From Nitrospinaceae bacterium (GTDB lineage Bacteria; Nitrospinota; Nitrospinia; Nitrospinales; Nitrospinaceae): 64,000 nt of DNA. A model generated the notes under the pieces. It searched no databases and was not told the DNA's origin. It saw nothing but the letters and a program-made list of their open reading frames with translations. Location: assembly GCA_965223665.1 (NCBI GenBank), contig OZ245011.1, positions 2,176,001 through 2,240,000 of the forward strand. The letters run 5' to 3'. Position 1 is the first letter of the stretch; every line of letters begins with the position of its first letter. The position numbers and the translations under genes are program-made. Shown here piece by piece: positions 2 through 22,474 of this stretch.

Positions 2-2293
2 GATGCGCTCTCTTGCGATCACCGCTCCCGAAGGATCTTTCACCGGTTTTAAAGTTCGATCGCTGGAAAACTTTTCCAGGAACATCCGACCCAGGTTTTC
101 CCGTGTAATCAGAATTCCCTTCCTCTTCAATTCCCTTCGCATCGCCCCCAGGGTCGGTCCCGGCAGAGAATCAATATCTCGGACTCTCACCTTTTTGTCA
201 TCCACCCAAACATAAGCCAATGGTTTCTGTTCTTCATCTAACTCGGAATAAAATTTGCCGGGCCCTATATGGTGCAACCCCTCCAAATGCACCCGATCGT
301 TCAGTAAACTTTCCGCAAAAAATCTCTGGTCGCTTTCCGTAAACTTTGGACCCGCTTTTCTTTTGATACGGGCAAACTCTTTTTGCAAAGTATGCTTCGC
401 AGTATCAATCGATTCTTTAGGAACCAGGGAAATTAAAGGAACGGTTTCAAGGGAGTGTTCAAACATCTCATTGAAAGCATTTGGATCGACTGCGTTAATA
501 ATCTGAGTCCATTCATTATAATTTTTTTCATTCAATTGAGATTTCACCCAGTCATTCAGTTGAGATTCTGTATAGTTATACTCCGATTGAATTGCAAGAG
601 GCACAATAGTCTTCATCATATGGGCAAACCCAACCTCCTGATAATTGTCCCCAATGTCTTCCTTTTCAAGCCTCCTTGCAATTGCCTGCACCAGATTGAT
701 TTTCTTTTGATACTGCTCCTTCACTCTTTGTCGATCCGCAACATTTTGCAGCTGACCCGGATTCTAGATCAGCCGATGGTCTTCCTGCATTCCATTTAAA
801 AATTCTGAAAGGACCGGGTCAAATTTATTGTATTGATGAACACCGGAGCCGAAGTACAGGGAAAACTTATTCTGCAGATTCGGGTTATCCGACGTGGCCA
901 AATCCATCAAAGGCTTATAAGCGTTTGCCTCCTTTTGCAGTTTGAGTAACAACTCATCTCTTTTCCGGTTCGCATTGTTTTGCTCAGAAGTTCCCCCTGC
1001 CGGAACAGCTCCCTGTGTAAAATCCTCCGGGTTGATTTCCGTCGACAGTGAAACCGGTTGGCCTCGGTCCACGGCCAATTCAGCATGACCGGTAGCTTCA
1101 GGGGAAAGCGGGGGTTGTGTACCTTTCAACCGGAACTCGATAATTTCTTCCAAAGCCTCTTGGGTTTCTTTACTGACGAGAGGCCATTCCGATCGCTTTT
1201 TCAAATCGGTCAACGAGGGAACTACCGGGCTTTCGGCAGCAAATTGAAACAAGGATTCCTCATTCTCGTATTTGGCGGTATATTCTTTTAACGTGTTTGT
1301 GTATTGTTGGTGATCCCTTAACTTTTCAGTCATCTTCCGTTCTTACGGATCGTCAATATTCCGGAGAGCTTCCTGTTGTTCTTCCTCCGTCAGGGACTCC
1401 AGCGCTGCCACATTGTGCTGGGCTTTATTCATCACCACCTGCTCCCGGATTCTCGCTTCGAGTGGTTCCGTATCGTTCGTTTTAAATTCTTTTTTATGCG
1501 CGGTAAAATATTCCTGCGCTTCTTCAGGTTGTTCGGATTTCAACATACTTTCAATCACCGTCAGGTTCACCCGCTCCAACACTTTTCCCTTTTCCGCAGC
1601 GACCCGTTCATCGCTCAATCCCATCGAAACCTGCAACATTTCAATGGAGCGGTTGATGACCTCAATTTCATCTTCGATCACTTGAGAATCTAAAGGATTT
1701 TTTCGAATCGATTCCAGAGAGGTGCGCGCCGTGTTCTGGTGATTTTGAATTACAGACCGTTTCCATTGCACTTCTTCATAGTCCCGCATTCCATCCAACA
1801 ACCGGGAAATTTTCTTTTCCAGAATCGGTTGGTATTCTTCGCGCAAATACTGCGGCATCTCGGCAAAACCTTTTCGTAGAGCCTGGAAATTTTCCGAGGA
1901 CGAATCCAACTGATACGTTTCCAACAGTTCCGGATCCGGGTCTGCAAAGTCTACGGGTGTTCCATCGGAAGGCTGATCCAACAAAGTTATAAATCTTTGA
2001 AACGCGTGTGCGAACCCGAAACTCTTTTCACCTTTTAACGACGCCATGCCCTCACGCACCTCACCCGCGGCCCCGGTGAGCGCTTTCTCCATTTTCATGA
2101 TCGATTGAGTATCACGCCGCTGTCGCTGCACATCCATGAACACCGCCGCTTCGCCCAGGGTGTTGCTGAGCGCATCCAGGTTACGCACTTTCGCTCCGCC
2201 AACCAGTTCCGGAGTCACATTCAATCGCAACTCCCCGCCCCCTAACGACTGCGGCTGTATTGTCGGATTATTAAGATGAGGTATTTTTGGCAT
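2..2293 (-). pseudogene. Phage internal virion/ejection-like protein (>760 codons, runs off the left edge), interrupted by two in-frame stops
   Basis: ORFs 1343..2302 and 764..1333 and an open frame 763..2 are all in one frame. TAA at 1343-1345 reads ...NIDDP*ERKMTEK and TAG at 764-766 reads ...HRLI*NPGQLQ. The MPKIP start (ATG 2293) and helical, charged composition resemble podovirus internal virion proteins (inference from context). Confidence 0.6.
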
Positions 2294-2325
2294 TAAGGTC
2301 ACCTGAGTTGAAAGTTTTATTCATT

Positions 2326-4648: not shown

Positions 4649-6139
4649 TTAACTTTGAAAAATCTTTCTATTTTTTAATGCGTTGTAGTTTCGGCGTTCG
4701 TTTTGGGAGCCGGCGGTTCCAAAGGCGGACTTTTTAAACGCTACCGGATAGGCAAAGGTGAGTGCCAACGCATCGCCACGATTCGGCGAAGCCAGCCCGC
4801 GTTCCTTCATCTGCTCTTTACTTTCCAGTTGAATTTTTCCATCGGGTCTTGGTACGGTTTCGGGTCCGATTAAATCCTGATACAACACATCATCTTTCGG
4901 AATTGCCCCGCCCTCCTGCAGCCATTTCTTAACACCGCCCCACATTTCGGCCCGCTTGTTTAAAAACCCTGCATCGTTCGCCTTCTCCCCAAACCATACC
5001 AACTGCCAGTTGCGCTGCATGGTTCTGCCGGCGCTCACTATACCTGTCCCATAACCGGCATCGACAAATACGGCATCGGCTTGAAGCTCGTCTTCCAACC
5101 GGGCAATGAGGTTGGCCACTTGAATATCGTTGTCGTTTTTGGGAATGGTCCGCAGTATTTTAAAATATAATCCCTGCCGCATGGCGATGACCAGTTCATC
5201 GTCGCCACCCCAGGCGGGATCGCAGGCAATAATCTTCGGCGCATAATTGTATTGCTCCGGTTTTAGATGCTTGCCCAGTGCCGCGTCCACCCACTCTGTT
5301 GAAATAAACTGCCTGGCCGAAACTGCGGGAAACATGCCGCGCACGCGGACTTTAACGAAATCCGAATCCTCTCCGTAATCGTCAATCCATTTTTGAATTT
5401 TGGCTTTGTTGGTGATGGCCACCTGTCGCGAGTCGATTTGATAACTTTTCCAACGGTGGCGAAAGCGTCGCCAGCATTCGCGGAAGCGCCCGGTGTTGCG
5501 AGTGGGATTTCCAAACGCGGCCCAGATCATTTCGGTATCGCTGTCGGTGAGCGCGCCTTCGGACACCTCCCAAATTGCATCGGGAATGGCCGAGCCTTCA
5601 TCAAAGATGAGAAGAATCCGTTTGCCTTTATTGTGCAAGCCGGCAAACGCCTCGCTCCGTTTCTCCGACCAGGGAATAATATCCATGCGCCAGGTCTTGG
5701 CGTGATCAGGATCCACCGAATGATAACTGGTCGCTTCCAACTGGAAGAAACTTTTGTAAGCACTGAGGCGATGCCACTTTTCCAACTCCGCCCAGGTTTT
5801 GGTCTTCAATTGATTCTCTGTATTCGCGGTGACCACGCCGCGAGTGTCCACTTTGGTGGTCATGCCCCAGTCGATGACCCACGCCACCAGTGCAGATTTC
5901 CCGACACCATGTCCCGAGGCGACAGCAATTTGGATCGCTTCACCGGGAGTGAGCAACCCGTCGCGGATTTCTTTCAGCACTTGAATTTGCCACGGTTCGG
6001 GTCCGGTGTGATCTTTCAGTTCGCCTTCACCCCACGGGTAGGCAAACAAAACGTACGCGTAAGGGTCATGTTCGAACTCGGCGATGGCATCGATGAGTTG
6101 ATCGAGCGTTTCCAGTTCCTGTTCAATCACTGCTGGCAT
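4649..6139 (-). CDS. terL: Phage terminase large subunit
   Basis: Walker A VASGHGVGKS, Walker B LLIFDE, coupling motif GNPTR, nuclease motifs ACDPAWGGDD and SPNRGDALAL. Start taken at ATG 6139 (MPAVIEQ), which overlaps the terS end. Confidence 0.93.
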   Translation of the reverse strand: MPAVIEQELETLDQLIDAIAEFEHDPYAYVLFAYPWGEGELKDHTGPEPWQIQVLKEIRDGLLTPGEAIQIAVASGHGVGKSALVAWVIDWGMTTKVDTRGVVTANTENQLKTKTWAELEKWHRLSAYKSFFQLEATSYHSVDPDHAKTWRMDIIPWSEKRSEAFAGLHNKGKRILLIFDEGSAIPDAIWEVSEGALTDSDTEMIWAAFGNPTRNTGRFRECWRRFRHRWKSYQIDSRQVAITNKAKIQKWIDDYGEDSDFVKVRVRGMFPAVSARQFISTEWVDAALGKHLKPEQYNYAPKIIACDPAWGGDDELVIAMRQGLYFKILRTIPKNDNDIQVANLIARLEDELQADAVFVDAGYGTGIVSAGRTMQRNWQLVWFGEKANDAGFLNKRAEMWGGVKKWLQEGGAIPKDDVLYQDLIGPETVPRPDGKIQLESKEQMKERGLASPNRGDALALTFAYPVAFKKSAFGTAGSQNERRNYNALKNRKIFQS

Positions 6140-6647
6140 CTTTTGCTTTCTGCAAACGTTCGGCGATGCGGTCGGCAAGGCCGTGTTTAAAATCGACTTC
6201 GTGCTTTTGCACAAACATTCCCAGGTGGTCTGCCAGAATTTTTAAGGAACGAATTTTATCGTGAAGCTTGAACTTGATGGTGCTGCCTTTGTCGTTCAAG
6301 GTGGCGTTGATTTCAGCGACAGCGGCCATTTGTTCGCGGGACAGTTTATCTTTAGCAATCATCGTCGCTTCATGCGAGTTCCAGTCTAAGTAGTCCCCAA
6401 CATTGGCAAACGCGACGTTGACCAATTCATCGAGAACGCGATCCTGTGTGATCTCCGTTCGCTGCGACAATTTGGCCTTGCCTTTTTGAATCGCTTTCTG
6501 AATTTCCGGCAATGCCATAAGCTTCCCCACGTTGGGTCCGGCAAACTTTTTGGCGTATCCGGCGCGGATGTAGGCTTGCGTGGCATTTAAATCCACCAGG
6601 TACTCTTCCACAAACCGCTCCTGCTTTAACGATAATTTTTTAGCCAC
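6123..6647 (-). CDS. terS: Phage terminase small subunit
   Basis: N-terminus LSLKQERFVEEYLVDLNATQAYIRAGY is typical of Terminase_2; KLHDK motif; immediately upstream of terL. Confidence 0.92.
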   Translation of the reverse strand: MAKKLSLKQERFVEEYLVDLNATQAYIRAGYAKKFAGPNVGKLMALPEIQKAIQKGKAKLSQRTEITQDRVLDELVNVAFANVGDYLDWNSHEATMIAKDKLSREQMAAVAEINATLNDKGSTIKFKLHDKIRSLKILADHLGMFVQKHEVDFKHGLADRIAERLQKAKDASSD

Positions 6648-6699
6648 TGCTTTAACGTGAAATTGATGTGATATAATATTTAGTTATGAGACGGATCTT
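6637..6699. repeat. Divergent promoter/junction block, copy 1 (copies at ~8707-8769 and ~10617-10679)
   Basis: TTTTTAGCCACTGCTTTAACGTGAAATTGATGTGATATAATATTTrGTTATGAGACGGATCTT occurs three times, at offsets of 2070 and 1910 bp. Confidence 0.95.
6669..6677 (+). promoter_or_regulatory. Extended -10 promoter (TGnTATAAT) 8 nt before the ATG of the first secreted paralog
   Basis: TGATATAAT at 6669-6677 and ATG at 6686, with no Shine-Dalgarno. The same geometry occurs before 8756 and 10666, and as TGATAAAAT before 7199. Confidence 0.6.
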
Positions 6700-7165
6700 G
6701 ATTTTATTGATAGTTTTCGGCTTACTTATGAGTGGGCCACAAATCGTAAACGCTGCCGACCAGAATTACATTATTGAAAACTGCGATCGCGAGTACCTTT
6801 GGACGGAAATTTTGAAGGATATTCGTTGGCGCGCACTGGAAGAAGCTAAGTTTATTGAGGAACACATTCAACCTACCCCAAACCGTCCAAAACTTACAGA
6901 AAAGGACTTCCGGGACATCGATAAATTGGACAAAAAAATCCGTTGGTACGCCTCCGAATGTATTTTGCTGATGAAAGAGATCAATGAATTTATGAGTGCT
7001 ATTCATTCTAAAAAACCCAATATGGGTTCTGAACTGGCATTTGAAGTTGATGGTACTTTAAACAAGTTCGACATCCCTTTTTTTAGACATTTTGATCGAG
7101 AAAATGATTTTAAACCTTTTTTCGAATTTAAGTATTATCTTTATAAGCCTTCCGGAAAGCTTTAA
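6686..7165 (+). CDS. Secreted/periplasmic protein, putative SLT inhibitor (immunity paralog I1, orphan)
   Basis: Sec-type signal peptide (MRRILILLIVFGLLMSGPQIVNA), conserved ENC..W and SECILLMKEIN motifs, about 82% identical by manual count to 10666..11145. Confidence 0.8.
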   Translation: MRRILILLIVFGLLMSGPQIVNAADQNYIIENCDREYLWTEILKDIRWRALEEAKFIEEHIQPTPNRPKLTEKDFRDIDKLDKKIRWYASECILLMKEINEFMSAIHSKKPNMGSELAFEVDGTLNKFDIPFFRHFDRENDFKPFFEFKYYLYKPSGKL

Positions 7166-7198
7166 GATATTCTGCTACCTGTGATAAAATGCTTTGTT

Positions 7199-7687
7199 AT
7201 GAGACAAATCTTTTCGACAATTATGTGTTTATTTTTTTTAGTTGTCCTACCTCACATTGTCCACGCCGGAGATGGAGGTTATGATATTGAGAACTGCGAT
7301 CGGGGAAAAATTTGGCCATTAATTCTATCTGACATGAAACGCCTGGACCCTAAAACCGCAAATTATATTGATCAAAATATTCAACCCTCGAAAAAACGGC
7401 CCACCTTAACGGTGGCGGACTACAAAGAAATCGATAAATTTCCGGAACCCTATCGCAAAGATATTTCTGAATGCATTCTGCTGATGAAGGAAATCAATCA
7501 ACTGATCCTGACAATCCATAAGAAAGATACCGAAATATCAATAATAACTAGTCTTGATATTGAACAGTTCCTTGGCATGCATGAAATTCCATTTATTTAT
7601 TTATGGAATTCCCAAAAAAAACTCATCACCTTCACTTTTGATTTCACAACGGTGAAAACTTTATTGCTAGGTCGCGAAAGTTACTAG
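7199..7687 (+). CDS. Secreted protein, putative immunity paralog I2 (partner of SLT 7644..8681)
   Basis: Signal peptide MRQIFSTIMCLFFLVVLPHIVHA, ENC and SECILLMKEIN motifs, 44-bp 3' overlap with the convergent SLT gene. ATG 7199 is preferred over GTG 7181, which lies in the -10 element. Confidence 0.8.
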   Translation: MRQIFSTIMCLFFLVVLPHIVHAGDGGYDIENCDRGKIWPLILSDMKRLDPKTANYIDQNIQPSKKRPTLTVADYKEIDKFPEPYRKDISECILLMKEINQLILTIHKKDTEISIITSLDIEQFLGMHEIPFIYLWNSQKKLITFTFDFTTVKTLLLGRESY

Positions 7688-8681
7688 GCACCGGTTTCCC
7701 TTGCCTCACCAAATTTAAAACATACCTGAATTGCCTTAAATACTTTCTTGTTTGAAGCGGCATTTTCTTTTCTACCTTAGCAATTATCTCTTCATCTCCT
7801 TGGTTTCCTTTTATTAGGACATTTGTACGCGCCCTATTAATTGCTTCTATTCCTGCGTTATACTCCATGGCAACAAACCCTAAATAATCATCTGTGCCCT
7901 TCCACCTTCGGGCCATGTCTTTAAAAATGAGCCATTTGGCCGCTCGGACATTAGACGCAGGATCCTTAGTGATTTGAGTTTGCGTCAAATTTAACATAGC
8001 TGATTTTGTATTTACTATATCTCCCGCCGTTTTTGGCATTATCTGCATTAATTGTCTTGCCCCTTTAGAACTTGGTTGGTTATTTTTTCCAACATCGGTT
8101 TCTAAATGCGCAATAGTGATCAATATATCTCCCACATCTTTTTCAGAAAAGTCCTTGGGAATCTCCATTCCTGATTCGCCTGCAATGACACGAATCGATT
8201 TGTAGGTATTAGGAGCATAGTTTTTTACTCCTTTTTTTATATTGTTCTTAACAGTGGATGAGCTATCAAAAACTAAATTTGGTGTGTAATATTTAGAAGG
8301 ATCATATTTCGTTGCAGTCAATTTTTTAGGACTCTGGCCTTTCGGTGCGTTGACGAGGTTTTGCTGCATAGCCCAGTCCATTTGAGCGTTACCGCTGCCG
8401 AGGGCACTGGGACTTAATGGATGCGGTTTTGTATGATCCTCGGTGTTGTACAAAATACCGGGATCAATGGTCCTCTCCGATGGTGGCAGACTTCCCTCTG
8501 TGGTTAAACCTCCATTCAATAATGTTGGTCTTCGATTTCTTCGTCTTCCTCTTTGGGTGCCAACCCGGCGGTCATCCTTTTTTCCGGAGCCATCTCCGTA
8601 AAGAATTTCTGCCATCTCTTCCCATCTTTCCCGACTCGGGAGATTGGAACTACCATATCCGCTTAAATTAATTCTTCCCAT
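7644..8681 (-). CDS. Lytic transglycosylase (SLT domain) with conserved N-terminal leader, variant T1
   Basis: Catalytic Glu in AHLET, QLMQIMP, DPASNVRA, EYNAG, QTRKYL motifs. First ~115 aa nearly identical to T2 and T3. Confidence 0.88.
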   Translation of the reverse strand: MGRINLSGYGSSNLPSRERWEEMAEILYGDGSGKKDDRRVGTQRGRRRNRRPTLLNGGLTTEGSLPPSERTIDPGILYNTEDHTKPHPLSPSALGSGNAQMDWAMQQNLVNAPKGQSPKKLTATKYDPSKYYTPNLVFDSSSTVKNNIKKGVKNYAPNTYKSIRVIAGESGMEIPKDFSEKDVGDILITIAHLETDVGKNNQPSSKGARQLMQIMPKTAGDIVNTKSAMLNLTQTQITKDPASNVRAAKWLIFKDMARRWKGTDDYLGFVAMEYNAGIEAINRARTNVLIKGNQGDEEIIAKVEKKMPLQTRKYLRQFRYVLNLVRQGKPVPSNFRDLAIKFSPL

Positions 8682-8755
8682 TTTTTATCCTTGTTCTAAA
8701 AATAACTTTTTAGCCACTGCTTTAACGTGAAATTGATGTGATATAATATTTGGTT

Positions 8756-9229
8756 ATGAGACGGATCTTAATTATATTTGTAGTTGTTGGCTTATTTATA
8801 AGTGGACCACAAATCGGAAACGCTGCCGACCAGAATTACATTATTGAAAACTGCGACCGCTCTATATTGTGGCCAGCCATATTGAAAGACTTAGAAACTC
8901 GTGATCCTTCGGCATCCGATTTTGTTAAAAACAATGTTAAAATTCCAAAAGAAAAACCCAGATTGACAGCCGATGAATTAAAGCAAATTCAATATTTTGA
9001 TCCGAAATTACATTGGCATGTTTCGGAGTGCATATTGTTGATGAAAGAAATTAATCAATTTGTTTCTGCAGTACATAAGTTTGGATATTCAAGAAGTTGG
9101 GATGTATCAATGGAAATCGAAGGCACATTAAATATTTATGATATCCCTTTTATTTCCATATGGGATAAAACCAAAAAATTTGTATTCTTTGTCAATTTTT
9201 CAAAATTAAGGCCACATAAAAACTTTTAA
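8756..9229 (+). CDS. Secreted protein, putative immunity paralog I3 (orphan)
   Basis: Signal peptide and first ~34 codons essentially identical to I5, divergent afterwards; ENC and SECILL motifs. Confidence 0.8.
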   Translation: MRRILIIFVVVGLFISGPQIGNAADQNYIIENCDRSILWPAILKDLETRDPSASDFVKNNVKIPKEKPRLTADELKQIQYFDPKLHWHVSECILLMKEINQFVSAVHKFGYSRSWDVSMEIEGTLNIYDIPFISIWDKTKKFVFFVNFSKLRPHKNF

Positions 9230-9246
9230 AAATTTTCTCAATCATA

Positions 9247-9726
9247 ATGAAAACCAAACTAACTATAATTTCGTTAATTCTTATCTGTTTCTTATTTTCT
9301 GGAACCCGGTTTGGGAATGCGGCGAATCGAAATTATCGCGTTGAAAATTGCAGCCGGGCCCAACTGTGGCCGGAAATACTGAAAGATTTGAAATGGCGTG
9401 ATCCGGAAACCGCTGAGTTCATCGATAAAAATATCAAGCCTGTCCAAGAACGCCCTCAACTGACCGATGAGGACTATCAACAAATTGAACGGTTTGATAA
9501 AAGGATTCATTATTTTCTATCCGAGTGCATGCTTTTGATTAAAGAAGTAAATGTGTTGATTAAGGAGGTCCATAAAATTGATCCCAATAAAACTTGGGCG
9601 GTTGGAGATGAAATTAGAGGAACCCTAGACAAGTATGAAATTCCTTTTGATTACAAATATACAAAAAAAGATGAATTTATTTTTTATGTCATTTTTGCGC
9701 CTTTAACGCCGGGCGAAACCTTTTAA
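9247..9726 (+). CDS. Secreted protein, putative immunity paralog I4 (partner of SLT 9689..10591)
   Basis: Signal peptide ending FGNA, ENC..W and SECMLLIKEVN motifs, 38-bp 3' overlap with T2. Confidence 0.8.
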   Translation: MKTKLTIISLILICFLFSGTRFGNAANRNYRVENCSRAQLWPEILKDLKWRDPETAEFIDKNIKPVQERPQLTDEDYQQIERFDKRIHYFLSECMLLIKEVNVLIKEVHKIDPNKTWAVGDEIRGTLDKYEIPFDYKYTKKDEFIFYVIFAPLTPGETF

Positions 9727-10591
9727 GATAATTCTGTGTTTCCTGCGGCATAAACTGTATTACCTTATCTATTTTTTGATTTGCTCCAACTCCAAACTTA
9801 TTTACCGCTTTTCTCCTTGCCTCTTTCACCGCATTTGGGCTTGAATTATACTCAATGATCGAAAATTCTAATCGGTTATCCACTCTTGGATAGCGTCTCC
9901 AAATATCACTAAACAACAACCACTTGGTTGCCCGAATGTTTGAAGCTGAGTCATTTAAAATTTGTTGTTGCGATAAATTTAATCCGCTTTGATTGGCAAT
10001 TCCCTGGGCAGTTCCCGGCATGATCTGACCCAAGCCTTTGGCTCCCATTGGACTGGTTTGACCGGGCACAAAACTGGATTCTAATTCCACGATGGTTTTA
10101 ATAATTCGAGCTGCGTCTCTATTAGTAAACCCTGTGGGAATTTTTACATCCGGTTCACTCGTTATTATTTCAATAGATTTCTTAACCTCCTTCACCGTAC
10201 TGAATTTATAATTGGTATTAAATTTTCCCTGCTGACCGGGTTGCTTGCTTTGGCCTTTCGGGGCGTTGACCAGGTTCTGTTGAATAGCCCAGTCCATTTG
10301 AGCATTGCCACTGCCGAGGGCACTGGTGGGAAGAGGTTTATCCGGGTTCTCTGTGTTGTACAAAATACTTGGATCAATCGTCCTCTCTGAGGCTGGAAGA
10401 CTTTCCTGTGCGGTTAAACCTCCATTCAATAACATTGGTCTTCGATTTCTTCGTCTTCCTCTTTGGGTGCCAAGCCGGCGGTCATCCTTTTTTCCGGAGC
10501 CATCTCCGTAAAGAATTTCTGCCATCTCTTCCCATCTTTCCCGACTCGGGAGATTGGAACTACCATATTCACTTAAATTAATTCTTCCCAT
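9689..10591 (-). CDS. Lytic transglycosylase (SLT domain) with conserved leader, variant T2
   Basis: ELESSF (catalytic Glu), SPMGAKGLGQIMPGTA, EYNS, PQETQNYL motifs. Confidence 0.9.
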   Translation of the reverse strand: MGRINLSEYGSSNLPSRERWEEMAEILYGDGSGKKDDRRLGTQRGRRRNRRPMLLNGGLTAQESLPASERTIDPSILYNTENPDKPLPTSALGSGNAQMDWAIQQNLVNAPKGQSKQPGQQGKFNTNYKFSTVKEVKKSIEIITSEPDVKIPTGFTNRDAARIIKTIVELESSFVPGQTSPMGAKGLGQIMPGTAQGIANQSGLNLSQQQILNDSASNIRATKWLLFSDIWRRYPRVDNRLEFSIIEYNSSPNAVKEARRKAVNKFGVGANQKIDKVIQFMPQETQNYLKRFRPALKAQK

Positions 10592-10665
10592 TTTCTATCC
10601 TTGTTCTAAAAATAACTTTTTAGCCACTGCTTTAACGTGAAATTGATGTGATATAATATTTGGTT

Positions 10666-11145
10666 ATGAGACGGATCTTAATTATATTTGTAGTTGTTGG
10701 CTTATTTATAAGTGGACCACAAATCGGAAACGCTGCCGACCAGAATTACATTATTGAAAACTGCGATCGCGAGTATCTTTGGGCTGAAATTTTGAAAGAC
10801 ATTCGCTGGCGCGCTCCGGAGGATGCTAAGTTTATTGAGGAACATATTCAACCTACCAAAAATCATCCAAAGCTGACAGAAAAGGACTACCGGGACATCG
10901 ATAAAATGGACAAAGCAATTCGTTGGTACGCCTCCGAATGCATTTTGCTGATGAAAGAAATCAATGAATTTTTGGGTGCTATTCATTCTAAGAACTCTGA
11001 TATTGCTATGGGTTTAACCTTTGAGATTGATGGAACCCTAAACAAATTTGATATACCGTTTTTCAGGCACTTTAATCGAGAAAATGAATTTAAACCTTTT
11101 TTTGAATTCATGTATTATCTTTATAAGCCTTCCGGAAAGCTTTGA
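10666..11145 (+). CDS. Secreted protein, putative immunity paralog I5 (partner of SLT 11108..12037)
   Basis: Signal peptide, family motifs, 38-bp 3' overlap with T3. Confidence 0.8.
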   Translation: MRRILIIFVVVGLFISGPQIGNAADQNYIIENCDREYLWAEILKDIRWRAPEDAKFIEEHIQPTKNHPKLTEKDYRDIDKMDKAIRWYASECILLMKEINEFLGAIHSKNSDIAMGLTFEIDGTLNKFDIPFFRHFNRENEFKPFFEFMYYLYKPSGKL

Positions 11146-12037
11146 GATATTCTGCCGGTGATAAATCGTTCTTATTCGGTCGTGTATTCATGGATTTCAG
11201 CTTCAAGACTTCCTTAATCTTGTTTCCTGCTCCCTGACCAAATGATTTTTCAGCTTCCTTTCTCGCTTTTTTTACATCATTCGCCCCTATTTTGTACTCC
11301 AATACCAGAAACCCGATTCGATCATCCGCCTTATCATAGCGTTTCCAGCCATCAAAAAATAAAACCTGTCCGGCAATGATATTAGCTTCATTTTTATCCA
11401 AAATATCGGTTTTGGTAAAACCCGTATTTAGATTTTGGGCAATTAAACCTGCTGTCCCATCAAGTATCTGCATCAATCCGGAAGCTGTGGAGTTTGGATT
11501 TTTTACTTTTGGCCTAAAACTGGATTCAATTTGAATTAACGATTTTGTGATTCGACTCACCTCTTGAACAGGAACCGGATAACCAAATTTCTTATGGGTT
11601 TTAACGGTAATTAAATCCACCAAATGTTTGACCTCTTTCACCGTACCAAATTTATAATTGGTATTAAATTTTCCTTGCTGACCGGGTTGCTTGCTTTGGC
11701 CTTTCGGTGCGTTGACGATTGCCTGCTGCATAGCCCAGTCCATTTGCGGGTTACCGCTGCCGAGGGCGCTGGGGGGAAGAGGTTTATCCGGGTTCTCTGT
11801 GTTGTACAAAATACTTGGATCAATCGTCCTCTCTGAGGCTGGAAGACTTTCCTGTGCGGTTAAACCTCCATTCAATAATGTTGGTCTCCGATTTCTTCGT
11901 CTTCCTTTTTTAGTGCCAACCCGGCGGTCATCCTTTTTTCCGGAGTCATCTCCGTAAAGAATTTCTGCCATCTCTTCCCATCTTTCCCGACTCGGTGGAT
12001 TGGAACTACCATATTCACTTAAATTAATTCTTCCCAT
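11108..12037 (-). CDS. Lytic transglycosylase (SLT domain) with conserved leader, variant T3
   Basis: QIESSFRP (catalytic Glu), STASGLMQI, ANIIAG, EYKIG motifs; RBS AAGGATAG upstream. Confidence 0.9.
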   Translation of the reverse strand: MGRINLSEYGSSNPPSRERWEEMAEILYGDDSGKKDDRRVGTKKGRRRNRRPTLLNGGLTAQESLPASERTIDPSILYNTENPDKPLPPSALGSGNPQMDWAMQQAIVNAPKGQSKQPGQQGKFNTNYKFGTVKEVKHLVDLITVKTHKKFGYPVPVQEVSRITKSLIQIESSFRPKVKNPNSTASGLMQILDGTAGLIAQNLNTGFTKTDILDKNEANIIAGQVLFFDGWKRYDKADDRIGFLVLEYKIGANDVKKARKEAEKSFGQGAGNKIKEVLKLKSMNTRPNKNDLSPAEYLKAFRKAYKDNT

Positions 12038-12280
12038 TTTCTATCCTTTAATTAATTCCCGGAATGTGAATCACCCCAGCCCGGCCCCCGGCCGGCAGGA
12101 ACATTCTTTTGCGATGATTTAATTTCAATGCTATATCTTCACAAAGTTTTCGAGGATTATAGTTGCCCCCAATCGCTAGATTGGAAAAGGGGAGCGCATT
12201 GGCTTCCCATTTTTATATTTGCTTCTAAAAGTAAAATTTGAGAACAGTTTCTGTCGATTCAATGTTCGCCACCGATCAGC

Positions 12281-12397
12281 GCAAATGAAAGTTGCCGCCA
12301 CGGCGAGTGAGTGCCCCCAATCGCTAGATTGGAAAAGAGGGAGCACATCGGCTTCCATAGAAACTCAACGCAAATGAAAGTTGCCGCCACGGCGAGT
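12281..12397. repeat. Short direct repeat within a cluster of dispersed palindromic elements
   Basis: GCAAATGAAAGTTGCCGCCACGGCGAGT at 12281 and 12370; CCCCCAATCGCTAGATTGGAAAAG at ~12166 and ~12314. Confidence 0.85.
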
Positions 12398-12657
12398 GGT
12401 GAATCACCCTGACCCTCTTTAGGAAAGAGGGAGCACATCGTTTTCCCCTGCGTCATATTCTCCAAAAGACAAAATCTGAGTTTGAAAATTTTCTGAAGAT
12501 TCCCTTCTATATATAGAACAAACTCACTTCCCTTTCTTAGATCACTGATCGGTATTCCGCCAGTTCAGGAAGCGGGCCCAAAGGCGGCGCAGCCAGCGTT
12601 TCAGTTTTTGCCAAAATCCGGGAGGGTCTTCTTGGGGTTTTCTATTTTGCCAGGGCA

Positions 12658-17870: not shown

Positions 17871-19712
17871 TCATTCTTTTGATTTAGGTTTTTGGCGGCG
17901 GATGTGTTCGAGGTTTTTTTGGATGGCCAGGACGTTGGCGTGGTCTTTGCCAAAGGCGGTTTTGAAAATGGCCAACGCGTTTTCAAAATATTCCGTGGCG
18001 ATTTTAGAGTTGCCTTTCATGTACCAGGCGCCGGCCAGGGTGCTCCAATGAAACCCCATCTTCGGATGACTTTTTCCATAAGTGACTCTATCGATGTCCA
18101 TTGCCTTTTCATAATACTCGATCGCTTTGTCCTGATCGCCCTTGCTGCTCCAGGCCACTCCCAGATGGTTCCAGCGTGCGGCCAGGTTGGGATGATCTTC
18201 CCCATAAGTTTTAATATCACTGTTCAAAGCTTTTTCTAAATACTCGATGGCTTTGTCAAAATTCTCTTGTGCACCGTAGGCCGATCCCAGGTTGTTCCAG
18301 TCGGCCGCCACATGCGGATGCTCTTCGCCAAAGTTTTTGAGATCGCTCGCCAGAGCTTTTTCATAATACTCGATGGCATTTTTGTAATTGCCTTTATCCT
18401 GCCAGGCGGTGCCCAGGTTGTTCCAACTGGTGGCCACTCGCGGATGTTTTTCTCCAAACGTTTTCTGGTTGACGGCTAACGCTTTTTCGAAAAACTCAAT
18501 GGCCTTATCGTACTTTTCTTTTTTGGCCCACACTTCACCAAGATGCGTCCACCTTATGGCCAGCTTGGGATGGTCCGGATCATACGTTTTCAGATCACTC
18601 GCCAACGCTTTCTCGTAATACGGAATGGCTTTGTCGTAGTTGCCTTTTCTCTCCCAGGTCATTCCGAGGTTGTTCAGGTTGGTGGCGATGCGTGGATGAT
18701 CTTCGCCATAGTTTTTGATATTGCTGGTCAGGGATTTATTAAAAAACTGGATCGCCTGTTCCAGGTTGCCCTTGTCTCTCCAGGCTTCTCCCAGGTTATT
18801 CCACGCCATGGCGATGAGAGGATGATCGGCACTGTGAGATTTTTTTAAATTTCTAACGGACCTGCCGTAATACTGAATGGCCTTATCGTAGTTACCGAGT
18901 TTTTTAAAAAGAAAACCGTTGGCGTTGGCATACAACGCATTGTCCTGGGCCAGTTGGGCCGCACTTTCCAAATGCTGCAGCGCCTGTGCGTATCTGGCCT
19001 GCTCGCTGTAAATTTTTCCCAGTCGGTAATGAACTAAAGCCTCATCGTCTTTACTGGGGAGTCGTGTTGGATGTCCCACCAATTCCTGCAACAGCTTTTC
19101 TGCTTCGGAGGTATCGCCTTTTTTCAAGGCCTGCCCGGCCAGTTTCAATTGTTCGGATGAAAACTGTTTTTCGAATTTCTGGAGATCGGTGTGAGTGTCT
19201 TTCAATAGCTGAATGTGATCTTCCAGGGAATTTTGCAAATCGACTTGTTTGCTTTGAATGGCGTGCATTTGCAATTGCAGGACTTTCATTCCTGCAAGGC
19301 TTTTACCGCGCGCCTCATTGATCTCAGCGCGAATTTCGGATTCGCGTTTTTTGAGAGTCGCCAGGTGCTGTCCCAAGGTGATTTCATAGACAATTTTTTT
19401 TTCTTCCGCGGGTGGGGTTCCATCAATGGGGTTGCCGCGAACCGGCTTGCCGGATCCTTGAGCCCAGGAAAGACTAACGGAACTTAAGGAGATCATTATA
19501 AAAAGGAGAAGAGTAATCAGAAAATATAAAACCCCTGGAGGTGAATCACCCCGACCGCGGGGAAGGCCCCGCCACCTGCATTTCATCTTCGATGGGTTCC
19601 ATCGATTTCTTAAATCCATCGACTTTTGGAAATCCTTTTTGCCTCCAACCGCTAGGTTGGGAAAGAGGGCGAACATGGGTCTCCGATTATTTTCTGTATT
19701 TGATTGTTCCAT
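17871..19712 (-). CDS. Tetratricopeptide repeat protein (42-aa kinesin-light-chain-type TPRs), probably exported
   Basis: About eight HPxxAxxWNNLGxxWxxKGxYDKAIxYYEKAL repeats. The true start is probably downstream (ATG 19586 or 19496) because the 5' extension runs through a repeat element. Confidence 0.88.
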   Translation of the reverse strand: MEQSNTENNRRPMFALFPNLAVGGKKDFQKSMDLRNRWNPSKMKCRWRGLPRGRGDSPPGVLYFLITLLLFIMISLSSVSLSWAQGSGKPVRGNPIDGTPPAEEKKIVYEITLGQHLATLKKRESEIRAEINEARGKSLAGMKVLQLQMHAIQSKQVDLQNSLEDHIQLLKDTHTDLQKFEKQFSSEQLKLAGQALKKGDTSEAEKLLQELVGHPTRLPSKDDEALVHYRLGKIYSEQARYAQALQHLESAAQLAQDNALYANANGFLFKKLGNYDKAIQYYGRSVRNLKKSHSADHPLIAMAWNNLGEAWRDKGNLEQAIQFFNKSLTSNIKNYGEDHPRIATNLNNLGMTWERKGNYDKAIPYYEKALASDLKTYDPDHPKLAIRWTHLGEVWAKKEKYDKAIEFFEKALAVNQKTFGEKHPRVATSWNNLGTAWQDKGNYKNAIEYYEKALASDLKNFGEEHPHVAADWNNLGSAYGAQENFDKAIEYLEKALNSDIKTYGEDHPNLAARWNHLGVAWSSKGDQDKAIEYYEKAMDIDRVTYGKSHPKMGFHWSTLAGAWYMKGNSKIATEYFENALAIFKTAFGKDHANVLAIQKNLEHIRRQKPKSKE

Positions 19713-20051
19713 TATCTTTTGTTATGCAAAGAACCCTTCATGAAAGGGGGAGCACATCCACTTTGTTTAAATACTTGTTGTATAGGGTTCATTGCAGAGT
19801 GATAGGAGACACTCTGGCAAAAGGGAATAATTTTATAAAACCCCTGGCGGCAAATCCCTCCAGCTCGGCCCCCGGCCGATTGGAAAATTGATTTACGATG
19901 AGCTAATTTCAATTCCATATCTTCACGAAGCTTTTTAATATTACTTCTACTTCTATCCACTAATTTAAAAAAGTGAAGTTTGATTCGTTTTTTCTTTTCT
20001 GTTTTTTCTCGGGGGCCGTTGCTAACCACATGCAAGTTCATATAAGGAACT

Positions 20052-21539
20052 TCATTTTTTTGGGAGGCGATCCAGGTAGTACTTCACATCATTATACTTA
20101 TGGTTAAGCCCGAAGTTTTGGTAAATCCCGGCGGCTTCTTGATAATTGACCAGAGCAGAATCATAATTGTTTTGCAGATCATAGGTATAACCGAGGTTGA
20201 ACTTTCGGTCCGCCACTTTGGGATGGTTGTTACCAAAAGTGTCTATATCGCTGGCCAGGGCCTGCTCAAAATAATCTAAGGCCTTCGGGTAATCTTCCTT
20301 ATCTCTCCATGCGGCACCCAGGTTATTCAATCCGACCGCAACTAAAGGATGCCCGGCACCGAGGGATTTTTTCCAGCTTCCCAGAGCTTTGGTGTAATAA
20401 TCGATGGCTTTGTCATAGTTTCCCTGGAGTCGGCACACTTCGCCCAGGTTGTTTTGATTGGTCGCCACCTGGGGATGCTCATCTCCATAGACCTGAACAT
20501 TGATGTCCAGCGCAGACTGATAATATTCGGTGGCCAAATCGTATTCGCCTTTGGCCCGGTAAGCGTCCCCCAGGTTGTTTCGATTCAATGCGACTGCAGG
20601 ATCTTCTTCCCCCAGATTTTTCACATTACTGTTGAGGGCTTTTTGATAATACTCCACCGCTTTATCGAGGTCTCCTTTATCCTGCCAAACGTCTCCCAGG
20701 TTGTTCCAGTTGGTGGCAATTTTAGGGTGGTCTTCCCCGTATACCTTGATATTGCCGGCCAGCGCTTTTTCATAAAATTCAATGGCCTTATCGTACTGAC
20801 CTTTGCTTTTCCAGGCTAACCCCAAATTGTTCATTCCCGTAGCAATGTCTGGGTAATCATCGCCCTCGCGGATCCGCCAGCTTTCGGTCGCCTTTTCATA
20901 AAACTCGATGGCTTTATCGTAATAACCCAGTGTCGAGTAAAGAATCCCAGTTTCGTTCGAATACAAACCGTCTCCCGGATCCAATTGAGCGGCTCGTTCA
21001 AAGTTTTTCAACGCTTCCGGATAATTCACTTCATCATCGGCCATTTTGGCTAGCCGGTAATGTCCCACCGCCAGTTTTTCGACGGCAGCCAACAAGTCTT
21101 TATTTTCGATCACTTCTTTAATGAGTTTTTTAGCTTCTTCGAGATCGCCCTTTTCCAGGGCCTGGGTGGCGCGGTCCATCTGACCGGATGAAAACAGATC
21201 CTTGAACTTTTGCAGGTCTTCGTTAGTGTCTTGCAGTTGCTGGATGCGTTGCTGATAAGATTCTTCCAGGTTTTCCTGTTTCGCCTGAATACCACTCAAT
21301 TCCATTTCCAATCCATGAATCCGGGCACGGTCTTTTCCATGCTCACGTTCCAGTTCAGCGCGAATCTGGGCTTCCCGTTTCTGCAAAAAATCATGGTGTT
21401 GTTCCAGGGTGATGCCGGTGTAAATGATTTTGTCGCGGCCAATCTTATCTTCGCCGACTTTATCGCCTCCTACCTGGTCCCCTTGCACCGAATGACCCAA
21501 AGGCGGAACATTTTTTTCTGAGGTTTTGTCGTCACTCAT
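20052..21539 (-). CDS. TPR protein with N-terminal GDKxG repeats and coiled coil
   Basis: VQGDQVGGDKVGEDKIGRDKI, then GITLEQH coiled coil, then 42-aa TPRs. Confidence 0.9.
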   Translation of the reverse strand: MSDDKTSEKNVPPLGHSVQGDQVGGDKVGEDKIGRDKIIYTGITLEQHHDFLQKREAQIRAELEREHGKDRARIHGLEMELSGIQAKQENLEESYQQRIQQLQDTNEDLQKFKDLFSSGQMDRATQALEKGDLEEAKKLIKEVIENKDLLAAVEKLAVGHYRLAKMADDEVNYPEALKNFERAAQLDPGDGLYSNETGILYSTLGYYDKAIEFYEKATESWRIREGDDYPDIATGMNNLGLAWKSKGQYDKAIEFYEKALAGNIKVYGEDHPKIATNWNNLGDVWQDKGDLDKAVEYYQKALNSNVKNLGEEDPAVALNRNNLGDAYRAKGEYDLATEYYQSALDINVQVYGDEHPQVATNQNNLGEVCRLQGNYDKAIDYYTKALGSWKKSLGAGHPLVAVGLNNLGAAWRDKEDYPKALDYFEQALASDIDTFGNNHPKVADRKFNLGYTYDLQNNYDSALVNYQEAAGIYQNFGLNHKYNDVKYYLDRLPKK

Positions 21540-22474
21540 TCGCTTTCATTCAGCACCGAGTATTCACGCAATGGATCGAGATAAGTTTTTACATCTTTCA
21601 CCAAATGATCCAACCCGAATTTCTGGTAGGTCGCTAAAGCTCTTTCGTAATATTGCAAAGCGGTGGGGTTTTTCTCTAAAAACTCATACATAAATCCAAG
21701 ATTAAAACAGCGGTCTGCAATCTTCAGATGATCTTCCCCAAAGTTTTTGAGATCGATGGACAAAGCTTTTTCATAAAACTTCACTGCCTTTTCGTATTGG
21801 CCCAGTGCAAAGAAAAGGTACCCTGTATTTTCCAGATACAATATTTTATCCGGAACCAGTTGGATGGCGCTTTGAAAATAGTCCAGGGCTTTGGGGTAGT
21901 CGAAATCGTTCTCGGCCAGTCGACCAATCTGGAAAGCGACTTCAGCCGCCTGCAGCTTGAACTGGTCTAACGGTTTATCCGGGTGAGCGATAAAGGTCAG
22001 ATAATGATCCAAAGCCTGTTGGAAAAGATTTTCAGCCTTTTCTGTTTTACCTTCGTTGAGAAGAGCTTCCGCTTCATTAAGCTGTCCCTTTGGAATCGTG
22101 GGTTGCCGCTCTAATGCTTCCATTGCTTCGGCCAAATAAGTTTTGGTTTTTGGCAAATCGTTTTCGATATGCTTGAGCCGATCGAGGGTCAGGTTTAAAA
22201 TATTTTCCAGGAAATCAATTTCTTTATCATCTCGGAGATCCCCTTTGGCATATTCCTTTTCCAGCTCCTTTTGGACCTGGTGAATTTCTCTCTCCAACTC
22301 CTTCTTGTGACCGGCCAGTGAGACTCCCGTTATATTATTTCCCAGACTCGCATCCCCACTGTAAATATCTTCTTGAACATGATCTCTATAAAACTTGATT
22401 CTTCGAGTCAAAGAAAGGGTTGCCCTTTTCTTAAAAGGAACCTGGATATTCCGGGATTTCATATTTTTAGCCAT
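21536..22474 (-). CDS. Short TPR protein, paralog of the neighbours
   Basis: GVSLAGH coiled coil plus three TPRs; C-terminus FGLDHLVKDVKTYLD matches FGLNHKYNDVKYYLD of the next gene; ATGA coupling. Confidence 0.88.
   Translation of the reverse strand: MAKNMKSRNIQVPFKKRATLSLTRRIKFYRDHVQEDIYSGDASLGNNITGVSLAGHKKELEREIHQVQKELEKEYAKGDLRDDKEIDFLENILNLTLDRLKHIENDLPKTKTYLAEAMEALERQPTIPKGQLNEAEALLNEGKTEKAENLFQQALDHYLTFIAHPDKPLDQFKLQAAEVAFQIGRLAENDFDYPKALDYFQSAIQLVPDKILYLENTGYLFFALGQYEKAVKFYEKALSIDLKNFGEDHLKIADRCFNLGFMYEFLEKNPTALQYYERALATYQKFGLDHLVKDVKTYLDPLREYSVLNESE

Follow-up and report, generated by a model that had tools for sequence, protein, structure and literature searches.

Paired SLT transglycosylase and small putative exported-protein genes bracketed by a recombining block in a predicted Nitrospinaceae prophage

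We have analysed a stretch of 64,000 nucleotides (nt) from a Nitrospinaceae bacterium, a marine nitrite oxidiser (GCA_965223665.1, contig OZ245011.1, positions 2,176,001-2,240,000 of the forward strand), which is called the window below and corresponds to G000:C1:2176001-2240000 within the 4.35-Mb genome. According to its map of open reading frames (ORFs), the window holds an array of three minus-strand genes, T1, T2, and T3, whose products carry an SLT transglycosylase domain, and five small plus-strand genes, I1 to I5 (Table 1). Our analysis supports the view that the mature part of I and the SLT domain form one contiguous variable core, that this core is bracketed by a single recombining block, and that cores have been transferred and turned over. 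As for function, we lean, with slightly better than even confidence, towards the reading that the I proteins are periplasmic inhibitors of virion-borne transglycosylases, in a superinfection exclusion similar to that of phage T4 Spackle and with an organisation similar to polymorphic toxin/immunity systems.

The recombining block consists of the T leader codons, the intergenic spacer, and the beginning of an I gene. Around the starts of I3 and I5, the segments 8682-8856 and 10592-10766 differ at exactly one of 175 nt (position 8685, T versus C), just as had been counted by eye in the original prediction, a note made from the letters of the window. The whole near-identical tract extends from about 8525 to 8856 with four mismatches altogether. 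In subwindows of 25 nt, the identity is 1.0 at 8525-8549, 8575-8649, and 8700-8849, with 0.92-0.96 in the three intervening ones, and past 8850 it drops to 0.5-0.6. That is, the near-identity of I3 and I5 stops at codon 36 (8856). By self-blastn, the repeat 8332-8890 / 10248-10800 is 90.4% identical over 560 nt, and 10182-10602 / 11628-12048 is 92.9% identical over 421 nt. The similarity of T2 and T3 reaches 66 nt deeper into the gene than that of T1 and T2 (the NYKFxTVKEVK stretch), in agreement with the extra sequence that the prediction had assigned to T2 and T3 and found missing from T1. Two further repeats involve I1, namely 6632-7188 / 10612-11165 (86.2% over 557 nt), where I1 resembles I5 along the entire gene, and 6632-6790 / 8702-8860 (91.8% over 159 nt).

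Breakpoints were located by maximum chi-square tests, with a permutation p of 0.0005 in every case, and with reference also to a second Nitrospinaceae genome of the same genus, a metagenome-assembled genome in which about 15 I genes are intact and 13 I/SLT pairs occur (the sister genome below). I5 follows I3 as far as 10727 (12:0 informative sites) and I1 from 10767 onwards (139:21), which bears out the earlier description of I5 as identical with I3 at first and then carrying the body of I1. T1 is T2-like from 8550 (54:2) and similar to the T1 type of the sister genome below 8524 (165:73), and a breakpoint of T2 lies at 10184-10214. Divergence along the units is therefore strongly non-uniform, as the identity windows, the tracts, and these tests all show. 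The leader itself is a mosaic, with 49% of the informative site pairs incompatible and a permutation p of 2e-4 for the pairwise homoplasy index (PHI), and its variants are common to neighbouring units of differing SLT type.

Synonymous divergence (dS) shows that flanks and cores have separate histories. For T1, T2, and T3 compared pairwise, dS is 0.17-0.30 in the leader and ranges from 1.4 to saturated in the remainder of the gene, so that purifying selection alone cannot account for the conserved leader. The reverse case is found in the sister genome, where the leaders of the units R_13b and R_14a311 differ at a dS of 0.59 and their SLT parts at one of 0.024. Here, a tract of 97-100% identity begins halfway through I (about codon 95), covers the entire SLT domain, and stops at about T codon 110 (breakpoint chi-square 167, p = 0.0005). 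These results allow us to judge the mechanism that had been predicted, in which homologous recombination in the flanks swaps both specificity halves together. Linked cores and recombining flanks are indeed observed, and the exchanges are not confined to the flanks, since the tract just mentioned, the best resolved of the transfers, ends inside mature I. Nor does every unit possess the conserved flank, because I4 lacks it at its 5′ end.

Traces of such rearrangements may also be present in the population. In Logan contigs from four DNA runs of one study, the short-read assemblies break at the repeat block, and we observe co-occurring variant alleles as well as alternative joints, e.g., from 10679 to 7280 and from 8691 to 12399. 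These joints are of low depth, with sides of 28-55 nt, and could originate from a co-occurring relative; they give a hint that the array structure varies in the population.

The convergent genes overlap at their 3′ ends by 44 nt (I2/T1), 38 nt (I4/T2), and 38 nt (I5/T3), as the range of 38-44 bp given previously had implied. On the other hand, the arrangement into three one-to-one enzyme/inhibitor units had to be abandoned, since I1 and I3 are both partnerless, with I1 directly upstream of I2 and I3 directly upstream of I4. For the pairs themselves, we have compared 21 cases, of which the sister genome supplies 13 and the study genome 8 (one of them a pseudogene, read with X at the stop). Maximum-likelihood trees were built from the C-terminal 165 residues of the SLT proteins and the C-terminal 133 residues of I. 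The two trees have 13 of 18 splits in common, against a maximum of 3 in 10,000 label shuffles, and the Mantel r on patristic distances is 0.69; the congruence of the two phylogenies, on which the prediction had staked its case, is thus observed. Of the splits that disagree, all five fall either within the T3-type clade or at deep nodes of weak support, and not a single pair is mismatched at the type level. The I2 type and the T1 type, for instance, are also paired together in the sister genome (R_13c343). An overlap of exactly 38 nt is kept in 16 of the 20 intact pairs, with 44 nt in two and none in two. The overlap may act as a lock on the halves, but the two non-overlapping pairs are still type-matched.

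The net charges of SLT and I are opposite in sign in 16 of the 21 pairs, and the only acidic SLT domain (-5) has as its partner an I of +6, the most basic value, which one other I also reaches. Among these non-independent pairs, the charge pattern weakly suggests a direct binding of T and I. An isolated pair of the sister genome (L015:9944-11780, near position 190 kb of contig_13) lies far from the main region and adjoins ORFs resembling primase and integrase genes. The charges of this pair are inverted (SLT -5, I +6), and it probably represents the use of the same kind of pair by a second, different mobile element.

On their profile matches and motifs, T1 to T3 are SLT lytic transglycosylases. 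Against Pfam SLT (PF01464) they score 34.8, 44.6, and 47.8 bits, respectively, where the gathering cut-off is 21.3. The family-1 signature of SLT comprises an E-S/T motif with the catalytic Glu and, after it, a GLMQ-like and an (A/E)YN-like motif, and all three motif types are found in the alignment: LETD, QLMQIM, and MEYNAG in T1, LESSF, GLGQIM, and IEYNSS in T2, and IESSF, GLMQIL, and LEYKIG in T3. Their PHROG matches are endolysins, lytic tail proteins, and an internal virion protein with an endolysin domain, the latter two kinds being matched by T2. In each T, the first ~113 residues constitute a nearly invariant leader ending in VNAPKG, which is followed by a variable linker and the variable SLT domain. 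A search for the leader among 5.8 billion proteins returned 11 proteins, all with PF01464 and all from the study genome or the sister genome, and the leader-type SLT domains form a single clade, with a support of 95 in the Shimodaira-Hasegawa-like approximate likelihood ratio test (SH-aLRT). The T proteins have no signal peptide, and a Shine-Dalgarno-like AAGGA is present. Besides them, the region encodes four further proteins (ORFs of 1105, 893, 571, and 159 amino acids (aa)) with SLT-like domains; these were recognised only from their resemblance to the T domains (E 1e-10 to 1e-13) and with a hidden Markov model (HMM) of the local copies.

The I proteins are 159-168 aa long in the window and have two invariant cysteines; across 31 aligned I sequences, 13 positions are invariant. 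The alignment reveals an N-terminal signal peptide with n, h, and c regions, which ends in AxA before an invariant A-A/G. The I proteins are thus predicted to be exported to the periplasm with a cleavable signal peptide. A perfect TGnTATAAT motif occurs 9 nt before the ATG of I1, I3, and I5, and also at I genes of the sister genome, and no Shine-Dalgarno sequence is found between the motif and the ATG. This suggests that TGnTATAAT may be a dedicated I promoter and that the mRNA may be leaderless or nearly so. A sub-threshold Pfam match of I4 (E 0.066) concerns an unrelated family. When the profile of the 31 I sequences was compared with all PDB chain sequences, two unrelated matches at chance level were returned (E 0.6 and 5), and the best score for I in the ESM Atlas was 0.77, below the level of more than a lead, with no convincing neighbour. 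The identity of I as a spanin (Rz-like) is ruled out by the AxA cleavage site, by the 12 copies opposite late genes, and by the lack of any embedded lipoprotein gene in what was seen.

Throughout the genome, the HMM of the I family detects 12 full-length copies, all on the plus strand and all within 2135-2187 kb, in the prophage-like region. A thirteenth match, a 5′ fragment that contains a stop codon, immediately precedes a T pseudogene. Nine of the 12 I genes share a 3′ overlap with an SLT-like ORF of the opposite strand, the partners being T1, T2, T3, the pseudogene of a fourth T (T4; frameshift plus TAA, with a domain 82% identical to that of T3), an SLT remnant of 80 aa, and the four further ORFs mentioned above. 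Since I overlaps the SLT end whatever the N-terminal carrier is (T leader, gp16-like, or others), the partner of I is the SLT domain. The remaining three genes (I1, I3, and the copy at 2170252) are directly upstream of another I gene, and every I gene adjoins either SLT sequence, be it a gene or a remnant, or a further I gene. The stops of I1, of the 2170252 copy, and of one sister-genome copy are followed by 10-25 nt of a T3-type 3′ end, which indicates that the partnerless I genes are leftovers after loss of T, rather than products of a swap. One T type, that of T3, has duplicate I cover (I1, I5, and two further copies). The mature part of I3, on the other hand, is 94.6% identical at the nucleotide level to the sister-genome sequence L013:13470-13838, which lies beside a T gene at L013:13882-14922.

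The known distribution of the I family is very restricted. It occurs in 2 of the 21 genomes of the bacterial family. A word-indexed search of 5.8 billion proteins gave 6 matches, 6 clusters, each with E < 1e-55, were recovered by a full HMMER profile search against 1.84 billion representatives, and scans of IMG/VR and JGI metagenome contigs gave none. Between the two genomes, unit number and order differ, which adds to the evidence for recombination. The terminase-side array has three T and five I here and four units in the sister genome; the portal-side array has one pseudogene unit here and two units in the sister genome, plus two on a separate contig; and the T2-type core is on the terminase side here and in the portal-side array there. 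At the nucleotide level, the identity between the two genomes is 90-94% for the phage backbone and 74-88% for the cores, except for the mature part of I3.

The genes around the array are those of a phage. Besides the terminase subunits, the region encodes a T7-type portal (PF12236), a capsid protein (PF20911), and an internal protein of the T7 gp14 family, which is followed by proteins of 1112 and 1105 aa, the 1105-aa one ending in an SLT-like domain. Terminase, portal, and capsid are all encoded by intact genes. Judged by the portal, which shares 47% identity with its counterpart, the nearest cultured relative is the temperate Bordetella phage BPP-1, whose structural cassette has a transglycosylase protein (bbp11) beside an internal virion protein. 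The element is best read, from its gene content, as a temperate podovirus related to BPP-1 and integrated in the Nitrospinaceae chromosome. In such a structural-gene setting, the SLT domains are most simply read as virion-borne wall-cutting entry enzymes. One gp16-like ejection-protein gene (window 640-2302, minus strand) is broken by an in-frame TAA at 1343-1345 and a TAG at 764-766 into ORFs of 319, 189, and 571 aa. Its sister-genome counterpart is one ORF of 1151 aa, 36% identical and aligned in a single frame. The C-terminal SLT-like domain of the 571-aa ORF and the I gene overlapping it are just outside the window (G000:C1:2174564-2175046).

A periplasmic protein can meet a cytoplasmic phage enzyme only if the enzyme comes from outside or the membrane is breached. 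In the exclusion reading stated at the outset, the T proteins would be peptidoglycan lytic transglycosylases of the virion or the ejection apparatus, and each I would bind and neutralise the SLT domain of its own pair. Being read against the late genes from their own promoters, the I genes would fill the periplasm of the lysogen with inhibitors of its own and of a few foreign SLT types, and wall penetration by incoming related phages would be blocked. The presence of several SLT isoforms would be the counter-move of the phage. At the DNA level, the T leader, the 68-nt spacer, and the I signal peptide would bracket the tail-to-tail variable halves, and homologous recombination and gene conversion in this block would duplicate, delete, and move cores while the matched halves stay joined. 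Both the expression of I in the lysogen and its exclusion function are presumed here; among the public sequencing runs listed for this sequence, none is of RNA.

What argues for protection against incoming related phages is that I outlives T: all 12 I genes are intact, whereas their partners include the T4 pseudogene, the 80-aa remnant, and the stopped gp16-like gene, and I1 and I3 have no T at all. The duplicate cover of the T3 type and the presumed targeting by I3 of a T type seen only in the sister genome argue in the same direction, and a match of I3 beside a T absent here is as expected for protection against non-self.

The same locus could, instead, be an interbacterial polymorphic toxin/immunity system, in which a phage-like particle kills non-immune neighbours and I protects the kin. 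The invariant leader ending in VNAPKG and followed by a variable C-terminal domain, the small linked partner of each T, the partnerless copies and C-terminal remnants, the recombination at the leader/domain junction, and the decay of some phage genes, as in domesticated particles, would all fit this explanation. We nevertheless consider it unlikely, because the leader occurs only with SLT (11 of 11 matches) and the variable domains have one fold and belong to one clade; because the pairing with I also holds for gp16-like ejection proteins, i.e., entry machinery; and because terminase, portal, and capsid are intact and well conserved between the two genomes.

Alternatively, I might act on the phage's own enzyme as a brake or timing factor of lysis, which buffers periplasmic SLT after leakage or after holin action. 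This would account for the strict one-to-one adjacency with SLT domains and for the periplasmic signal on I with none on T, and the convergent overlapping transcription, as deduced from the coordinates, could couple the expression levels. A brake of this kind, however, has no need of 12 paralogues, of several I genes covering one T type, or of partnerless I genes kept after the loss of T, one of them being specific for a T type that the genome lacks, and it therefore has little probability in our opinion. That I has no functional link to SLT at all, being any prophage 'moron' protein (e.g., a surface or periplasmic factor) of an ancestral arrangement that was tandemly duplicated, would be compatible with tree congruence by linkage alone, with the lack of a recognisable family, and with purifying selection on the cores, but is quite improbable given that both the pairing and the overlap of 38 nt are kept where the SLT domains share 24-30% identity and where the N-terminal carriers are unrelated, that no I stands away from SLT or another I, that the charges are inverted in the pair R_15_453, and that I persists as T decays.

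A number of observations also weigh against the exclusion reading itself. Congruent trees are expected from physical linkage alone, so that they demonstrate joint inheritance and leave functional co-evolution unproven. The charges are non-complementary in 5 of the 21 pairs, and the pairwise ratio of non-synonymous to synonymous substitution rates (dN/dS) in the cores is 0.04-0.42, a crude measure that gives no sign of diversifying selection. I1 to I5 match no family in Pfam, NCBIfam, PHROG, or PADLOC at E <= 0.01, and hence no known lysozyme/transglycosylase inhibitor or immunity profile in these collections; the known families of proteinaceous inhibitors of these enzymes include Ivy, MliC/PliC, PliI, and PliG. 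The SLT-like domains of the ORFs of 1105, 893, 571, and 159 aa match no Pfam family at E <= 0.001, and two of them have no obvious catalytic Glu in the alignment. The packaging of the short T proteins in virions would follow solely from their neighbourhood. A scan for consensus promoters and terminators did not return the TGnTATAAT sites, and its site count was no higher than in shuffled sequence. In addition, the element is partly decayed, as the T4 pseudogene, the SLT remnant, and the broken gp16-like gene indicate, and the system may be inactive here.

A more general proposition would be that related temperate phages of this lineage use a combinatorial code, in which isoforms of ejected transglycosylases and matching periplasmic inhibitors decide superinfection; this is tentative, and we hold it to be possible rather than probable. 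If it is true, the I repertoire, with the partnerless copies included, would define the exclusion group of a lysogen, and the T repertoire would define the lysogens that can still be entered. The tail-to-tail cassette with conserved outer flanks would let both repertoires change together, and the whole would be a polymorphic self/non-self system at the wall-penetration step, built on a family without known relatives. To our knowledge, phage exclusion at the wall step has one well-studied case, T4 Spackle, and polymorphic enzyme/immunity cassettes are familiar from bacterial weapons such as CDI, Rhs, T6SS, and colicins. The present locus would bring the two together, with many type-matched pairs in one prophage that diversify by cassette recombination. 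It supplies at least five cognate types, together with natural non-cognate controls and partnerless copies, and adds an unannotated protein family known from two genomes among billions of proteins searched. With its conserved 5′ ends on the outside and its variable 3′ ends meeting in the middle, it is also an example of how gene orientation can promote the joint exchange of two interacting specificities.

Several features of the surroundings may be recorded as well. The G+C content of the T/I array (window 6001-12000) is 0.37-0.42, compared with 0.48-0.52 in the flanking phage genes. A short dispersed repeat with 78 blastn matches genome-wide is present at 12164-12446, between the start of T3 and a gene of 705 aa, where the contig depth in the four DNA runs reaches up to ~10x that of most neighbouring bins. 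Three consecutive TPR-repeat proteins (613, 495, and 312 aa) are encoded downstream of the phage structural genes, on the minus strand at window 17871-22474. Outside the window, at G000:C1:2145303-2154615 (L009/L010), about 10 kb of plus-strand genes unlike those of phages, with a sigma-54 activator gene, split the phage-like region between two gp16-like modules, and the region may consist of two elements or of a rearranged one.

Table 1 Positions of the array genes, the conserved block, and neighbouring features (window coordinates)
Feature	Position	Strand	Remarks
571-aa ORF, N-terminal part	2-724	-	Last piece of the gp16-like ejection-protein gene
Terminase large subunit	4649-6214	-	PHROG matches
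Terminase small subunit	6123-6647	-	PF03592; PHROG matches
TGnTATAAT motif of I1	6672-6677	+	Same motif as at I3; repeat family and alignment
I1	6686-7165	+	Partnerless, T3-cognate type; mature part 83% identical to I5; about 10-23 nt of a T3-type 3′ end follow the stop
I2	7181-7687	+	Paired with T1; ATG at 7199 is the likely start
T1	7644-8681	-	345 aa; ~113-residue conserved leader, then SLT; PF01464 E 1.3e-8
Conserved repeat block	8332-8890	.	T1 leader codons, 68-nt intergenic spacer, and first ~37-47 codons of I3
TG-preceded TATAAT (extended -10) of I3	8742-8747	+	9 nt upstream of the I3 ATG at 8756
I3	8750-9229	+	Partnerless; cognate T type (346-aa protein) missing here, present in the sister genome
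I4	9247-9726	+	Paired with T2; signal-peptide region divergent, outside the conserved block
T2	9689-10591	-	300 aa; leader, then SLT; PF01464 E 1.2e-11
Other copy of the repeat block	10248-10800	.	Repeat families and self-blastn
TGnTATAAT motif of I5	10652-10657	+	Same motif as at I3; repeat family and alignment
I5	10660-11145	+	Paired with T3; mosaic, I3-like 5′ end to 10727-10766, body I1-like
T3	11108-12037	-	309 aa; leader, then SLT; PF01464 E 1.3e-12
Other copy of the repeat block	11694-12048	.	Leader part only; repeat families and self-blastn

Among known systems, T4 Spackle is described in PMC7677548 as a small periplasmic phage protein which inhibits the gp5 tail lysozyme of the incoming phage and not the cytoplasmic endolysin. 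By analogy, I would inhibit the virion-borne SLT domains of incoming phage. Unlike Spackle, the enzyme here is an SLT transglycosylase and not a T4-type lysozyme, I has no relation in sequence (only the two PDB profile matches given above, and no Pfam match), and many type-matched pairs with overlapping 3′ ends occur in a presumed temperate prophage, whereas the lytic phage T4 has just one early gene.

T6SS (type VI secretion system) effectors such as Tse3 with its partner Tsi3 are, as outlined in PMC3792639, muramidases or transglycosylases that are delivered to the periplasm and neutralised by a periplasmic immunity protein. Unlike in these cases, no T6SS context was seen around our genes, and I has no Pfam or NCBIfam similarity. 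Pore-forming colicins have the immunity gene on the strand opposite to the toxin, as PMC4436062 relates, and a convergent layout of toxin and immunity genes thus has a precedent. Evolution by domain exchange is another common point of colicins and the present array. Colicin immunity proteins, however, are inner-membrane proteins, while I looks soluble and exported, and colicins are plasmid-borne single loci without arrays. On the phage side, T7 gp16 and BPP-1 bbp11 resemble the 1105-aa and 1151-aa proteins, which come after a gp14-family gene and carry an SLT-like domain. This domain is C-terminal here, unlike in T7 gp16, where the SLT domain is N-terminal.

Within the literature searched, no description was found of a prophage with 7-13 SLT-type genes, a dedicated family of short leader-plus-SLT proteins, and an overlapping partner gene for each. 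What is new is the protein family and the arrays of type-matched pairs, with a very narrow known distribution, while the principles of exclusion and of the cassette are known. The systems CdiA-CT/CdiI and Rhs-CT/RhsI, as presented in PMC4436062, combine a conserved N-terminus, a variable C-terminal domain (CT), a cognate protein, orphan modules, and recombination at the junction. Orphan modules (partnerless I and SLT remnants) and breakpoints at the leader/domain junction are likewise found here. On the other hand, a single domain family is involved (PF01464 in all 11 leader proteins), I is convergent and overlapping instead of co-directional and downstream, and the setting is that of phage structural genes. 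Overall, in its architecture the locus is closest in logic to these polymorphic toxin systems with orphan modules and junction recombination.

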